Shown here: positions 31,071 through 37,655 of the stretch, piece after piece
Layout of the letters: the number at the start of each line of letters is the position of its first letter
Numbering within the stretch: position 1 is the stretch's first letter
Assembly (NCBI GenBank): GCA_963696735.1
Contig: CAVOLG010000006.1
Span: forward strand, 3,442 to 67,441
Source of the DNA: an uncultured Actinomycetes bacterium
GTDB lineage: Bacteria; Actinomycetota; Thermoleophilia; Gaiellales; JALYLC01
Direction of reading: 5' to 3'
Length of the DNA stretch: 64,000 nucleotides
Position numbers and translations under genes: made by a program
Notes under the pieces: model-generated
Databases searched by the model: none
What the model was told of the DNA's origin: nothing
Seen by the model: the letters and a program-made list of their open reading frames with translations, nothing else

Positions 31071-32107
31071 CTAGCCCCACGGTTCGTTGTACTGGTGGAA
31101 GAACGGGCAGGCCTGGGGCTCGCCGATGGTCACCGCCGGGTTGCCGCCGTCCTGGGCGAAGTGGAGGTGGGCCACGCCGTTGGCCTCGCCCGAGAGGCCG
31201 AGCTGCTGGCCCGCCTGCACCAGCTGGCCCGGCCGGACGTCGATGCGGGAGAGGTGCGCGTAGTAGAACCGCTGAGCGCCGGTGTCCAGGTTGACTCGCA
31301 GGCCCTGCAGACGAGGGTCGGTGGAGTTGAGCGAGCCGATGCCGCTCCCGATCACGCCGGGAGCCACGGCCAGGACGGGCGTGCCGATCGGGCACCGCGA
31401 TGTCGACGGCATCGTCGGAGGCAAGGTTGAACGGCCAGGTGAACGGGCTGTGCGTCGAGCCGATGACGAACGGGCAGCCGATGATCTGGCCGCGGCACGG
31501 CCAGCGGGTACGAGTACCCGAGCCCCCCGGGGTGGGCGAAGAAGACGGCGGAGAGGGCGAGCGGCGAGGCGGCCACCGCCGGGGCCGCGCGGGCCAGGCG
31601 CGATGCGGCGTGGCGGCGGGCCGGGGCCGTGGGCAGGCCGAGCAGGACGTCGGAGCCGGGGCCCAGGGCGCCGTCGGCCCCGGCCAGGTGCAGGCGCAGG
31701 CCGACGAGGCCCGCGCTGCCCGGCGCCACGGCTTCCTGCAGGCCGACGAGGTAGCCGCGCGTCCCGAGGGTGACAAGGGTGTTGGCCCCGACGGTGCGCG
31801 CCTGGCCGTCCACGGTCAGGCCCGTGACGCGGGCGCCGTAGAAGCCGTGGCGGGGGACGACGATGGTGGCTGCCCGCACCTGGCCGCCGAGCAGGCTGAC
31901 GCCCCGCAGCACGGTCTCCCTGCGGGTGGCGGAGACGGACTGCACCCGCACCAGCGAGCCGCTGCCCGGGTAGGCGAACCGTCCCGTGCTGGCAGACGCC
32001 ACGACGACGCCGCCCGGGTCGTGGACCTCGACCGCGGCCGCCTGCGCGGCGCCGGGGAGGACGGCCGCCGCCAGCGCCACGAGGAGGACGACCGCGCCGC
32101 GAGCCAC
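31071..32107 (-). CDS. Secreted M23-family peptidase (frameshifted)
   Basis: Signal peptide; AVDIAVPIGTPVLAV, YYAHLS, GQQLGLSG, HLHF. Confidence 0.85.
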
Positions 32108-32158
32108 GACCGCGAGGATAGCGAGCGCCGCGCCGGCGTCCGGCTAGGGTTCGCGCGC

Positions 32159-32732
32159 ATGCCGGTGACCACCCGGTCCCCGTTCTGGCGGGTTCGCACC
32201 CTCGGGGCAGCGGCCCTCTGTGCCCTGGCCGGCCACGCCGCGCTCTACCGGAGCCTCTGGCCGGGCGGCGGCGCCCACGGCTACCTCGGCTGGTACGAGG
32301 CCGCGCTCGGCGCGGCTGTCGTGCTCGCGCTGGCCGGGCTGGCCGCGCTGGTCGTGATCCCCGGGCCTCCGCCGGCGGCTCGCCGTCTCGCCGGGGCGCT
32401 CCGTCCCGGTCGGCGACCGGGCACGCGTCCTCACCGGCTTCGCCCTGGCCTGGCTCGCCGGCCAGGAGGCCGCCGAGCACCTGACCGCGGGCGGCTCGCC
32501 GAACGTGGCTCCGAGCGCCTGGCTGCTGGCCGTCATCGCCTGTCTCGCGGCAGCCCTCGTCGTGGCCTGGGCCGAGCGGGGCGCACACGCCGTCCTCGCC
32601 GGGACCGCCGCCATTCCGCGCTCGCGGGCCGCGCGGGCGACGGGCCTGCGGCCGCTCGTGGTCCGCTCGCCCCGCCGCCGTCCGATCGCCCTGCACCGCG
32701 CCCTGCGCGCGCCGCCCGCCCTCCTCGCCTAG
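32159..32732 (+). CDS. Membrane protein with C-terminal RAPP motif (one frameshift)
   Basis: AGHAALY..HGYL..QEAAEH, hydrophobic segments, Arg/Pro-rich tail ending HRALRAPPALLA. Confidence 0.7.
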
Positions 32733-32771
32733 GCCACCTCGCGCCCTTCGGGGCGCCGACCAGCGAGGAAC

Positions 32772-33779
32772 GTGACCGTCGATCCGCCCTGCCGCCGGCT
32801 GCGGCCGGCCTCGATCGCCATCGCCACCCTGGCCCTGCTCGCGGGGCCGGCGCCCGCCTGGGCGCACAGCGGCTCGGCCACCGCCGCGGGCGCGAGCTAC
32901 GAGGTCCGCGGCCTGCGCTTCGACCCGCCCGTGCCCGGCCTCCAGGCGCGCGTCATCGGAGGCGACCAGCAGTTGCGCCTGCAGGTTCCCCCCGATCTTC
33001 CGGTCACGGTCCTGGGCGACGAGGGCGAGCCGTTCCTCCGCTTCACCGCCAGCGGGGTGGACGTGAACCTGGCCTCGCCGACGGCTGCCGTCGCCCGCCT
33101 CGGCCCCAAGGGCGCGCAGCCCGGGGCCTCTCGCTGGCGCCACCTCACCAACGGACATGCGCTGGCCTGGCATGAGGGGCGCCTGCGCCCTCGCCCGCTC
33201 GGTGGGGCGCCGGCCTCCGCCCAGCTGGCCGGGGACGTGGCCATTCCGCTGCAGGTGGCGGGCCAGCGCGTCCACGTGGTCGGGCAGTCCTGGTACGCCC
33301 CGGGACCGCCGGTCTGGCCGTGGCTGATCCCGGCCGTGGTGATCGTGCTCGGGACCGCCCTCGTGCTCCTCCGCGGCCGGGCGCCGGTGGCCGCCGGCGC
33401 GGTGCTCGCCCTGGCCCCGCTGGCAGTGGTGGCCACACTGTGGAGCATGGCCGGCATCACCCTGGCCGGCCCGCACTCGGCCCTGGCCTCGGCGGTCGAG
33501 ATCGGATCTGCCGCGCTGCTCGGCCTGGCGGGTCTGGCCTACCTCGGCCTCAGCGGAGCCGGGGCGCGGCTCGGCGGCGCGGTCGTCCTGGGGACGCTCG
33601 CGTGCCTCGAGGCCACGGGGCTCCTCGGCGCCCTGACCCACGGGTTCGTGCTCTCGGCCTCCTCGCCCGACCTGACGCGCGGCGCCATCGCACTGGCCTT
33701 CTGGGCCGGCGTGGGGATGGTGGCCATCGCGGGGGGCGAGCTGGCGCGGGAGGCTCTCACGGTGCGGGGGAGCCGGTGA
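32772..33779 (+). CDS. Exported-domain plus multi-TM hypothetical protein
   Basis: Signal peptide AWA-H, GDEGEPFLRF, AWHEGR, about 5 C-terminal TM segments. Confidence 0.75.
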   Translation: MTVDPPCRRLRPASIAIATLALLAGPAPAWAHSGSATAAGASYEVRGLRFDPPVPGLQARVIGGDQQLRLQVPPDLPVTVLGDEGEPFLRFTASGVDVNLASPTAAVARLGPKGAQPGASRWRHLTNGHALAWHEGRLRPRPLGGAPASAQLAGDVAIPLQVAGQRVHVVGQSWYAPGPPVWPWLIPAVVIVLGTALVLLRGRAPVAAGAVLALAPLAVVATLWSMAGITLAGPHSALASAVEIGSAALLGLAGLAYLGLSGAGARLGGAVVLGTLACLEATGLLGALTHGFVLSASSPDLTRGAIALAFWAGVGMVAIAGGELAREALTVRGSR

Positions 33780-35182: not shown

Positions 35183-35308
35183 TCAGGCCAGAGCGGTCTT
35201 GACCAGCAGGATGGCCACGATGATCGCCACGACGCCTGCGCCCAGGGCGACGACGGCGGCCACGAGCCGCAGGCGAACGCCGCCAAACGGCGTTTCGGGG
35301 TCGCTCAT
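35183..35308 (-). CDS. 41-aa membrane microprotein
   Basis: MSDPETPFGGVRLRLVAAVVALGAGVVAIIVAILLVKTALA; ATGA overlap with the copCD stop. Confidence 0.65.
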   Translation of the reverse strand: MSDPETPFGGVRLRLVAAVVALGAGVVAIIVAILLVKTALA

Positions 35309-37038
35309 CCGTTCGCCTGATCGAGGATGAGCGCGTTGAAGGCCGTCCCGCCCCTGGGCGCGACCTGGAAGTTGAGCGCCCACTTTCCGACCATGACGAG
35401 CGCGGGCGCGGCGCGCGAGTAGAGGCCTGGCTGAGTCTCGGCCAGCTGGTACGTCTGCTGGGGCATCTGCATCTCCGTATGGTTCAGTGTCAGCGTCACG
35501 TTCGCGCCCCGCACGGGCTGTCCGCCCTTGGTGATCCGAAGGGCGAAGCGGTCGGGCTGGACCGCCTTGTTGGGTGTGACGATCAGCTGCAGCGTGTAGC
35601 CGTCCTTGTTGATGGTCTTCGCGACCTGGCCGGGGCCGACCTGGGCAAGCGCCGAGTTCTGGAGCGCGAACGCCGGCGGCGGCGGCGCCAGGCTGGAGAG
35701 AACGGCGGCTGCGAAGACGGCGATCGCGATCAGCAGCGTCTCCCCGCTGATGAGCCTGCGCAGCACGCGCGCCGTGGGCTCGCCGAGCTCCGGCCGCGTC
35801 CGGGCGGCGACCAGTCGTGGCTTGGTGAAGAGCAGGTTGGCGGCGCCGAGCAGCATGGCCGCCGCCAGCAGGCCGATCTTCACCAGGATGGCCACGCCGT
35901 AGCTCGTATCCCAGAGCGCGTTGAGGACCGGCAGGTGGTTGATCGTCGCCCACGTCCCCGACGCCAGGAGCACCATCACCGAGACGAAGGCGACGTTCGA
36001 GAAGCGCGGCACGACGATCGACAGGCCCTCGCCCCGCCGACCGCGCGCGGTGGCGATGTAGAGGACGAGCAGGCCGACCAGTCCGCCGAGCCACAACGAG
36101 CCGGAGAGCAGATGCAGCCAGTCGAGCAGGACCGACAGGCCGCGAGGAGCGGTCTGCGCGGCGTGACCGGCAGCGCCCGGCATGACGAGCACCGCCGCGG
36201 CGGCCAGCAACGCGCCGAGCAGCGAGACGATCTCGGCTAGCGAGCGTTGCTCGCGGGTCGGAGTGTCCAGCCAGAGCGCGATCCAGGCCGCGGCGCAGAA
36301 GAGGGCAAAGCAGAGCGCCATGTCGACGTAGCCACGGCCGAAGGCGGTGACGCGGAACAGCGGCACCAGCGATGGCACGGCGAAGACCGAGCGCAACGAG
36401 TCGGTGGCCGTGGCGAAGTCGAGGTACGCCGGAATCGCGACCAGGGCGACGAGCGAAACGACCACGAAGGCCCATGAGACGGACGTCAGGCTCGAGCCCG
36501 GCACGCGTCGCATGAGCGGCCGCGCGATCAGCATCCGGAAGACGAACAGCCCGATCGCGAGCATCGTGGAGAGGAACATCGCCCAGCGAGCGATCAGGAG
36601 GTTGGTCGACGTCGCCGAGGCCGCGATGCTGGGCACCCGGAACTGCGGCGCCGGGCCGGGGTTCGGCCCGATGGCATAGGTGAAGGCGCCCTGAACCGGG
36701 TGGCCGTCGACCGAGATCGCCCGCCAGTAGACGAGGTACCAGCCCTCGGGAAGATGCGGTCGAAGCGGCACGACCAGCGTGTCCGGATTGGCGGGCGACC
36801 TCGTGACCGGACCGGTCGTCACCTGCTGCCCCGCGGCGTTGGTCACGGAGATGATCGCGAACTTCGGCTCGACCGCTTCGTCGTACGTCAGCTGCACGCT
36901 CGGGGGCGGAGCCGCGAGGACGCCACTCGCCGCCGGCACGGTCCTGATGAGATAGGCGTGCGCCGACGCGGTCGCCGGCAGCACGAGGCCGGCGGCGACC
37001 GCCGCCAGCGCGAGAAGGATCAGCCCCCGCCGTCTCAC
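35305..37038 (-). CDS. CopC-CopD-YtkA/FixH fusion copper uptake protein (YcnJ-like)
   Basis: ASA-HAYL, WRAISVDGH, GHA, DWLHLLSGSLWLGGL, RFS, TSYG..LVK, C-terminal HTEMQM. Confidence 0.92.
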   Translation of the reverse strand: MRRRGLILLALAAVAAGLVLPATASAHAYLIRTVPAASGVLAAPPPSVQLTYDEAVEPKFAIISVTNAAGQQVTTGPVTRSPANPDTLVVPLRPHLPEGWYLVYWRAISVDGHPVQGAFTYAIGPNPGPAPQFRVPSIAASATSTNLLIARWAMFLSTMLAIGLFVFRMLIARPLMRRVPGSSLTSVSWAFVVVSLVALVAIPAYLDFATATDSLRSVFAVPSLVPLFRVTAFGRGYVDMALCFALFCAAAWIALWLDTPTREQRSLAEIVSLLGALLAAAAVLVMPGAAGHAAQTAPRGLSVLLDWLHLLSGSLWLGGLVGLLVLYIATARGRRGEGLSIVVPRFSNVAFVSVMVLLASGTWATINHLPVLNALWDTSYGVAILVKIGLLAAAMLLGAANLLFTKPRLVAARTRPELGEPTARVLRRLISGETLLIAIAVFAAAVLSSLAPPPPAFALQNSALAQVGPGQVAKTINKDGYTLQLIVTPNKAVQPDRFALRITKGGQPVRGANVTLTLNHTEMQMPQQTYQLAETQPGLYSRAAPALVMVGKWALNFQVAPRGGTAFNALILDQANG

Positions 37039-37655
37039 GCGAGCGGGCGCTGCTTTCCGCTCCCGCTGCCCCTGACGAGCGCATAGCCGCCGGCGGCCAG
37101 CCCGAGCAGGCCGACGACCAGCGCGACGATCGTCAGCGTCGAGACGCTGCCGCCCCCGAGCGAGCTCTTGGCCTCGATCGTCGGGGCCGGAGCGTCCGAA
37201 GTCTCCGGGCCGGACCAGTTGACGATCGAGCCGTCGGAGTAGGTCTGCTCGACCTGGAACGTGTAGGTCTTGCTCGACGCGGGCTGGGCGAGGAACTGGA
37301 AGAGCGAGTCCTGCCCGGTCGGGGTCTTCCCGCCGGTCCACGTGACCTTCGTGATGACCGCGCTGTCCCCGGAGCCGCTCTGCTGCTCCGACTGCTTCCA
37401 GCCCGGCGGCGGTGGCACGAACGAGTCGATTCCGAACCCGGCCGGCACCGTCAGGACGATCTTGGACGTCGTCAGGTTGCTCTTCTCGGTCGGCACAGCG
37501 AGGCTGTAGAGCTGGAGCTTGCCCGAGAGCGATACGGGCGGGCTGACGCGCGCGTGGGCGGACGCCGACGCCGCGAGCGCCAGCGAGCCCACGGTCACGA
37601 CCGTGATGCCGAGCAGCCGCGTGATGCCACGCCCAGGGCCCGTGTGTCGAGGCAT
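37035..37655 (-). CDS. ycnI: YcnI/DUF1775 copper-binding membrane protein
   Basis: ASA-HARVSP, VPTE, PGW, VTWTGG, QTYSDGSIVNW, C-terminal TM. Confidence 0.88.
   Translation of the reverse strand: MPRHTGPGRGITRLLGITVVTVGSLALAASASAHARVSPPVSLSGKLQLYSLAVPTEKSNLTTSKIVLTVPAGFGIDSFVPPPPGWKQSEQQSGSGDSAVITKVTWTGGKTPTGQDSLFQFLAQPASSKTYTFQVEQTYSDGSIVNWSGPETSDAPAPTIEAKSSLGGGSVSTLTIVALVVGLLGLAAGGYALVRGSGSGKQRPLA

Follow-up and report, generated by a model that had tools for sequence, protein, structure and literature searches.

A candidate Shine-Dalgarno-unmasking switch controlled by RAPP arrest in a new family of membrane sensor proteins

The present analysis concerns the junction between two genes in a stretch of 64,000 nucleotides (hereafter the window; 73% GC) on contig CAVOLG010000006.1 of an uncultured bacterium of the Actinomycetes (assembly GCA_963696735.1). 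The upstream gene specifies a membrane protein, here called the sensor, which ends shortly after the tetrapeptide RAPP; the downstream gene, which would be the regulated one, codes for an exported protein of 335 aa. Codons which follow RAPP are complementary to this second gene's Shine-Dalgarno (SD) sequence. Our interpretation, which is supported by comparative evidence from homologous loci, is that translational arrest at RAPP unmasks the SD sequence, and that this switch is carried by a new family of sensors; judging from the sequences we consider this probable, if far from assured.

In the mechanism that we propose, the last ~13 residues of the sensor (RPxAxxxxLRAPP) would act as a translation arrest peptide of the RAPP type, the ribosome stalling with the first proline codon (Pro1, CCG 32712–32714) in the P site and the second (Pro2, CCC 32715–32717) in the A site. 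This assignment follows the toeprint of CruR (PMC12992588). The stall itself is suggested by analogy, the motif being known to arrest ribosomes in other proteins: seven RAPP/RGPP proteins of S. lividans arrest in vitro, and RAPP did so in every natural context tested in that paper (PMC12992588). When free of ribosomes the mRNA would fold, from the last Pro codon to the GTG start of the downstream gene, into one long interrupted hairpin, and the downstream gene would be off because the tail codons pair with its SD sequence and start codon, clamped by an inner hairpin. A stalled ribosome would keep the 5' arm in its mRNA channel, leaving the SD sequence free for translation of the membrane protein with an N-terminal His. 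After release, termination would occur 2–7 codons further on, the clamp hairpin would refold the helix, and the downstream gene would be shut off. The elements of the junction are as follows.

32706–32717, + strand: RAPP codons CGC GCG CCG CCC (motif invariant in 18 aligned homologues)
32717–32728, + strand: 5' arm of the outer helix (minimum free energy [MFE] and partition-function folds)
32733–32740, + strand: linker, mostly unpaired, between outer helix and inner hairpin (MFE fold; site of indels among relatives)
32741–32756, + strand: inner GC hairpin GCGCCC-UUCG-GGGCGC (sequence and fold)
32763–32769, + strand: SD region belonging to the downstream gene, GCGAGGA, which forms the outer helix's 3' arm (sequence and folds)
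32772–33779, + strand: putatively regulated gene, 335-aa exported protein, first start GTG 32772 (open reading frame [ORF], alignment, AlphaFold2 [AF2] model)

The RNA element at the junction

The RAPP codons are followed by GCC CTC CTC GCC (Ala-Leu-Leu-Ala) and by TAG (32730–32732). Within the 5' arm CGC (32717–32719) pairs with the GTG start codon, and the anti-SD TCCTCGC (32722–32728), which occupies +10 to +16 counted from the first P-site nucleotide (as are all such positions below), pairs with the SD region; the inner GC hairpin would clamp the two arms together. A first-pass annotation of this DNA had pointed to RAPP at 32706–32717, the GTG at 32772, the hairpin GCGCCC-TTCG-GGGCGC at 32741–32756 and an anti-SD which begins 5 nt past the last Pro codon and matches the reverse complement of GCGAGGA exactly. 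All are present in the sequence, and the pairing that it had proposed, enclosing the hairpin, is the MFE fold of 32690–32790. The SD sequence and start codon thus lie, in silico, in the 3' arm of a stem-loop, as in systems of the SecM, MifM and CutF type. Partition-function folds of the window without a ribosome gave unpaired probabilities of 0.01 for the SD core and 0.04 for the start codon, so that the ribosome binding site (RBS) is predicted to be closed rather than open regardless of the ribosome, and 99% of the SD pairing is to nucleotides +6 to +15.

Whole-genome searches produced 34 loci homologous to the sensor. Of 30 loci, 24 have a member of the 335-aa family as the next gene, 2 a DUF1775 (YcnI) gene and 4 a gene of some other kind. 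Intergenic distances are 29–69 nt in 26 of the 30 loci and 112–222 nt in the remaining 4, and the junction folds cover the 26 with short intergenic regions. In the 21 loci with 39–69 nt, codons past Pro-Pro, usually together with the stop codon, pair with the SD region in the MFE fold, and each of these junctions possesses a GC-rich inner hairpin (21/21). The other five (29–32 nt) have no such hairpin (0/5), and in these the Pro-Pro codons themselves or nearby bases pair with the SD sequence.

The partners of the SD sequence are concentrated in the region which a stalled ribosome would cover. Averaged over the 26 loci, the pairing mass (partition function) is 0.21 at positions 0 to +5, 0.34 at +6 to +10 and 0.12 at +11 to +15, that is, 0.67 in total at 0 to +15, falling to 0.00 at +16 to +20 and 0.01 at +21 to +30; none of the 26 loci had its SD partner at +16 to +30. 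The stop codon varies in position from +15 to +24, and the SD partners are still found at 0 to +15. This region accounts for at least half of the SD pairing in 18 of the 26 loci (L055, a 19th, sits at exactly 0.50). Across these loci the predicted 5' arm would fall inside the coverage of a stalled ribosome; in the window it lies at the outer edge, +10 to +16.

The first-pass annotation had suggested that covariation be sought in homologous loci and that a lack of conservation would tell against the pairing. Since MAFFT alignments of 5–9 junctions left the 3' arms out of register, we used alignment-free tests and built no covariance model. The tests, the permutation and Fisher figures of which overstate independence because the lineages are related, gave the following: among 15 lineage representatives cognate tail/SD pairs averaged -18.9 kcal/mol versus -15.3 kcal/mol after swapping, the observed sum being reached in 2 of 20000 permutations; when the SD core was excluded the values were -10.3 and -6.7 kcal/mol (0 of 50000 permutations); and synonymous recoding of Pro-Pro plus tail in the 15 representatives gave a Fisher p of 9e-4. 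A second choice of representatives reproduced the core-excluded result. When compared with 170 windows slid along its own ORF, the tail ranked 0 in six loci, and the median rank was ~8 in the 24 loci followed by the 335-aa family. The recoding signal is driven by lineages with the rare codons CCT, CTT, TCG and GCT. Of the 26 loci, 9 use CCT at Pro1 and 3 use CCA, compared with usages of 8% and 4% in the flanking genes, while at Pro2 CCC is found in 15 (usage 27%); CCU CC(C) constitutes a perfect anti-SD within the P and A sites. With footprint pairing in 18 of the 26 loci and compensatory change detected in this manner, pairing across the homologous loci clearly exceeds chance, the window locus alone not being significant.

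One might suppose that LRAPP is a binding or sorting motif of the mature protein and that the helix is an element of mRNA stability or processing, its pairing with the SD sequence being incidental. Codons for Pro-Pro-Leu (CCN CCN CUC) are by their nature complementary to GGAGG, Leu is encoded most often by CTC (54% usage), and in DNA this rich in GC SD sequences are frequently predicted to be paired. Against this, the pairing extends beyond the CCUCC:GGAGG core and covaries when the core is excluded, rare codons are used where they improve it, and RAPP brought about arrest in all the natural contexts tested in PMC12992588; we regard such a coincidence as highly improbable.

Control at the level of transcription must also be weighed. 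The GC-rich stem might be a terminator or pause site lacking a U-tract, or the untranslated RNA might be a substrate for Rho, the stalled ribosome then causing anti-termination. A strong GC hairpin is found in 21 of the 26 loci, and CruR, a protein with a C-terminal RAPP encoded in a copper operon, has been proposed to act via Rho-dependent termination (PMC9426467). An intrinsic terminator was rejected here, as there are 0 terminator-like sites (GC-rich hairpin plus T-run) in 31900–33100. The 3' arm comprises specifically the SD sequence and start codon, the covarying part flanks the SD sequence, and five loci do without the inner hairpin. Rho requires a long unstructured site, and intergenic regions of 29–69 nt leave little room for it to load. 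Transcriptional control is, in our opinion, distinctly unlikely. A known RNA family was likewise rejected, there being 0 matches to Rfam covariance models at E ≤ 1 in 31900–33100.

In the SD-unmasking model a stalled ribosome must free the RBS, as the first-pass annotation had inferred. The stall was modelled by removing the mRNA as far as position +15, whereupon the mean accessibility of the SD sequence rose from 0.20 to 0.47 (30 loci). In the window it went from 0.01 to 0.47, and that of the start codon from 0.04 to 0.55. The effect is dependent upon coverage, the window SD accessibility being 0.02 with coverage to +9, 0.17 at +10, 0.29 at +11 and 0.50 at +13. A stalled ribosome would be expected to melt mRNA that far, through its footprint and the helicase at its entry site. 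The predicted folds, taken with the comparative evidence, therefore favor the earlier inference, provided that coverage reaches +11 to +13 (accessibility 0.29–0.50). Accessibility lends support to the model only in combination with partner geometry and covariation, because control SD sites are also mostly paired.

A number of results weigh against this model. The 32690–32790 region folds at -39 kcal/mol as compared with -37.2 ± 3.1 for dinucleotide shuffles (z -0.58), 57 of 200 of which fold at least as well; the structure is thus no more stable than its composition predicts. For eight further SD-like sites of the window the folds likewise predict a mostly paired state (mean unpaired probability 0.24), so that sequestration as predicted is not distinctive; this control set comprises only eight crude sites, and accessibility values were not used as evidence alone. 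TCCTCGC occurs 42 times over both strands of the window, and a second copy on the + strand of the same ORF (32593–32599), 129 nt upstream, could re-pair with the SD sequence. In the sliding-window test the window tail ranks 131 of 170, in a comparison where an arm of a hairpin fell inside the SD window; of the synonymous recodings of this tail, weighted by codon usage, 80% give pairing at least as good; and the cognate pair ranks 5 of 15 in the swap test and 6–7 of 15 with the core excluded. The window helix is the shortest of the family. Its SD sequence opens only if the stalled ribosome melts the mRNA to at least +11 to +13, and is even then predicted to be only about half open (0.47). In seven of the 26 loci (L064, L069, L073, L057, L065, L066 and L067) positions 0 to +15 account for less than half of the SD pairing, the last four pairing mostly upstream of the P site. 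Helix registers differ even among close relatives, and MAFFT combined with RNAalifold on 19 junctions yielded no consensus structure (0 pairs). In DNA this rich in GC thermodynamic prediction alone does not discriminate, and the evidence for the pairing from the window alone is weak.

Two further observations concern the window junction. Once the proximal anti-SD is covered, the copy at 32593–32599 could compete for the SD sequence. In addition, the sensor TAG and the downstream GTG share a frame (32730–32774), in which the 13 intervening codons are all sense codons, such that read-through of TAG would fuse the two proteins; among the 26 homologous junctions with short intergenic regions, 14 have an intergenic length divisible by 3.

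The sensor family and its RAPP motif

The motif itself is strongly conserved. R[AG]PP followed by 1–6 codons and a stop is present in 31 of the 34 homologous loci (counting L075, whose motif stands in a shifted frame); in L028 RAPP is found at the expected spacing without a nearby stop, and L082 and L083 are partial. A search of 1.84 billion cluster representatives with an 18-member profile returned 1468 representatives at E ≤ 1e-3, a lower bound, these being clusters at 50% identity. The motif and spacing counts were taken from the best 150 of these. RAPP (127) or RGPP (10) ends 1–8 residues, mostly 3 or 4, before the C terminus in 137 of the 150; the other 13 comprise 11 partial profile matches (ending at or before position 178), P0033 (match to 191) and P0145, a full-length match carrying RSPP. 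In the window RAPP lies four residues before TAG. Together with the transmembrane segments of the sensor (AF2 helices, hydropathy) and the short distance (39 nt in the window) to a downstream gene of the same orientation, this would place the sensor among proteins of the RAPP/RGPP class.

Elsewhere these tetrapeptides are avoided. In a crude coding set from the genome RAPP occurs 7 times versus 20 expected and RGPP 4 times versus 14 expected, each being the rarest of its own 12 letter orders. RAPP is thus costly in this genome, in agreement with PMC12992588.

Invariant residues in the 18 aligned members are H23, H37, Y39, Q100, E101 and E104, together with R-A-P-P. The Arg of RAPP follows the QE..E motif at a median distance of 87 residues (interquartile range 86–88, range 79–91, n=137), and the end of the last hydrophobic segment lies 49–50 residues from the P-site Pro. 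The linker before RAPP is of fixed length and poorly conserved in sequence. The duration of the stall would probably be set by the nascent chain outside the ribosome. Because this fixed ruler puts the last helix just outside the exit tunnel, we suggest as the timer insertion of that last transmembrane helix and/or binding of metal at the His/Tyr/Glu cluster; the positive-inside pattern would place this cluster on the outer face of the membrane.

These data bear upon a simpler explanation, plain translational coupling, in which the helix ties downstream translation to any terminating ribosome and ensures a fixed stoichiometry of two membrane proteins. RAPP would then merely slow the ribosome or serve the mature protein, with neither regulated arrest nor a signal. 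It is in keeping with coupling that both products are membrane proteins, that the intergenic distances are short (29–69 nt), that the stop codon lies inside the 5' arm at most loci, and that a terminating ribosome opens the window SD sequence more than does a stalled one (0.66 versus 0.47). Coupling, however, needs no RAPP, yet the motif is near-universal in the family and avoided elsewhere in the genome; it leaves the fixed 87-residue spacing to a conserved motif without obvious use; and the SD partners are grouped on the codons in the P and A sites and the 10 nt beyond rather than at the variable stop (+15 to +24). We consider coupling unlikely, if the most serious of the alternatives to SD unmasking by arrest.

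Modelling suggests that the sensor itself is a membrane protein of ~190 aa with four helices; its family lacks annotation and is mainly from Actinomycetota. For a full-length homologue the AF2 model displays four long helices (2–27, 35–67, 82–109 and 121–154), a low-confidence linker, and a short helix directly before RAPP. A hydropathy scan found 3–5 hydrophobic segments in 122 of 137 members. The nearest ESM Atlas clusters are unannotated and mostly from Actinomycetota. Pfam searches with five homologues gave nothing at E ≤ 1 beyond chance-level rows, and none for the window ORF; there was no NCBIfam match to the sensor, and no match of its AF2 model to the Protein Data Bank (PDB) at E ≤ 0.001 with Foldseek. 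Membership of DUF2946, the CutF/CruR family, was considered and rejected, as the sensor has neither the Pfam match nor a conserved Cys pair.

The 26 places found by the first single-protein genome search comprised the locus in the window, 10 genuine relatives and 15 matches that arose by chance. The latter, Ala/Arg/Pro-rich frames recognised by translation and including L049 from genome G238, were dropped. Also rejected was L086 (Nonomuraea), a chance match to the peptide pattern with no RAPP gene upstream.

In the window the ORF upstream of the junction, rather than being a short leader, constitutes the C-terminal portion of the ~190-aa membrane-protein gene, the two parts of which are read in different frames:

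32159–32366, + strand: N-terminal part of the sensor, ATG 32159, helices 1–2, conserved His/Tyr/Trp (third-position GC [GC3] frame plot; columns 1–112 of the homologue alignment)
32359–32366, + strand: frameshift site, the homopolymer run CCCCGGGCC (contigs of relatives)
32367–32732, + strand: C-terminal part of the sensor, with QE..E, last transmembrane helix, Arg/Pro-rich linker, RAPP, ALLA and TAG

The GC3 signal favors the C-terminal frame from ~32380 and another frame from ~32150 (GC3 frame plot), the first canonical start in the C-terminal frame as assembled being GTG 32505 (75 aa). When aligned to full-length homologues (170–210 aa), the two pieces follow one another end to end. In relatives from soil metagenomes (~90–95% identity) either GG is inserted behind 32366 (contigs X1 and X3) or one base is missing at 32359 (X4), and each change joins both frames into one ORF, the gene being intact in these contigs. 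From the GC3 frames, the homologue alignment and the intact contigs we conclude that the window carries a frameshift in CCCCGGGCC. That the gene is frameshifted as assembled counts on the opposing side, since translation of the entire protein would then miss the frame of RAPP. The genome being 72% complete and in only 8 contigs, the likely cause is an error of assembly, a real lesion being the less probable alternative. In the assembled sequence ribosomes which initiate at ATG 32159 would remain in a frame without a stop as far as 33175, and they would pass over the switch.

The soil contigs also show indels at 32736 and 32739, both within the unpaired linker, and 0 of the 40 substitutions listed for them (32 further differences exist) fall in 32706–32735 or 32741–32774.

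The downstream gene and its copper context

The product of the downstream gene carries a signal-peptidase site, AxA|H, and, in the AF2 model (predicted local distance difference test [pLDDT] score 84.6), a beta-sandwich domain and, C-terminal to this, a membrane domain made up of helices. The AxA|H site, which would leave a mature N-terminal His, is invariant in 15 aligned family members. A WH[DE]xR motif is largely conserved, its W and R being invariant; it reads WHEGR in the window and mostly WHDHR elsewhere. An HG.V.S motif was also noted in a late helix (window and 14 homologues). Neither Pfam nor NCBIfam contained a match, nor did Foldseek match the AF2 model to any PDB entry at E ≤ 0.001. 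Based upon the model and motifs, it looks like a metal-binding, possibly His-brace-like, membrane protein.

The protein is probably copper-related, a link which is suggested by its His motifs, by a gene for a CopC-CopD-YtkA/FixH fusion (677 aa; 35305–37338, - strand) located 1.5 kb downstream, and by the YcnI (DUF1775) gene which follows the sensor in two homologous loci. In locus L031 (G007:C124) the order is 335-aa gene, RAPP sensor and then, 127 nt downstream, DUF1775 (YcnI); the SD pairing to the footprint is there predicted to be 0.00.

Relationship to known arrest systems

The logic of this switch is already established elsewhere; what is new are the sensor family and the target family. 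In SecM-secA, MifM-yidC2, VemP-secDF2 and uDF_RQH-secDF2 a stalled ribosome disrupts a stem-loop which sequesters the SD sequence (PMC7897499, PMC10987492), and such monitors, like the sensor, carry a localisation signal upstream of the arrest site. The first-pass annotation had cited SecM-secA and MifM-yidC2 as having the geometry seen here. For the former both papers agree; for the latter PMC10987492 says only that it operates 'in a similar fashion'. These monitors regulate the Sec/YidC machinery by means of other arrest sequences, whereas the motif here is RAPP and the target is not a localisation factor. Furthermore, the anti-SD described here starts at the P/A-site codons or within ~10 nt of them.

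A closer parallel is CutF-cutO of Rhodobacter capsulatus, where stalling melts a stem-loop that shields the RBS (PMC9973294; 10.1101/2025.02.05.636593). Both systems have an exported or membrane nascent protein with a C-terminal Pro-rich stalling motif and an anti-SD shielding the RBS of the next, copper-related gene, and in both the metal-binding site of the sensor would be extracytoplasmic. They differ in that CutF is a signal-peptide DUF2946 protein with CxxxC, the sensor having four helices, a His/Tyr/Glu cluster and no Pfam match; in that the CutF stem-loop is situated between cutF and cutO, the 5' arm here consisting of the sensor ORF's own last codons; in that cutO specifies a multicopper oxidase rather than an unannotated membrane protein with an N-terminal His; and in that CutF is from Pseudomonadota, the present family, by its nearest Atlas clusters, being mainly from Actinomycetota.

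With ApdA, ApdP, the S. lividans proteins and CruR the sensor shares a C-terminal R-A/G-P-P a few residues before the stop (PMC7897499, PMC12992588, PMC9426467), and with the RAPP/RGPP class in general an N-terminal localisation signal or transmembrane segments and a downstream gene on the same strand. That class includes four-transmembrane proteins upstream of copper genes in Actinomycetota, among them RAPP/RGPP proteins upstream of YcnI (PMC12992588). The conserved 45-residue spacing between CxxC and RAPP in CruR is echoed by the 87-residue spacing between QE..E and RAPP. CruR has been proposed to act through Rho (PMC9426467), whereas we favor SD unmasking, and for ApcA, ApdA and ApdP the authors predicted no hairpin sequestering the SD sequence (PMC7897499), unlike the situation predicted here. 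PMC12992588 nowhere mentions Shine-Dalgarno, secondary structure or stem-loop.

Full-text searches of the literature, together with the papers cited, gave neither the sensor family nor the target family, nor a conserved SD-sequestering helix for any RAPP-class peptide; the sensor family may be listed in the supplements of PMC12992588. Six family-typical strings and four of six tail strings were absent from the readable part of its supplementary tables, where the family may still be present.

Combining these data, one arrives at a nascent-chain sensor family of four-helix proteins, at least 1468 clusters in size and mainly from Actinomycetota, in which an 87-residue ruler would run from an extracytoplasmic His/Tyr/Glu site to RAPP and in which arrest would unmask the SD sequence of a family of membrane proteins with an N-terminal His. 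It would be a transmembrane sensor of metal (copper?) working only during its own synthesis, and the first RAPP-class peptide with a conserved, covarying anti-SD drawn from codons inside the stalled ribosome. This composite reading is offered tentatively, and we would hesitate to back it in every part.

Nascent-chain sensing has so far been shown for CutF and CruR, both from Pseudomonadota, and for the Sec/YidC monitors. If the present proposal is true, transmembrane sensing of this type would extend to a large group of Actinomycetota from soil and take in a sensor fold which bears no relation to DUF2946, and for one RAPP family it would answer the question, left open by the discoverers, of how the stall reaches the downstream gene (PMC7897499). 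The findings also point to metal handling as a function for two unannotated protein families. The 87-residue spacing and the footprint-limited anti-SD would furnish simple design rules for finding arrest-controlled operons in raw sequence.

A second arrest peptide is possible, judging from its sequence, at G000 contig C2 455359–456169 (+), where an open frame ends in ...NRAPPLVVRAS, with RAPP 6 residues from the stop.

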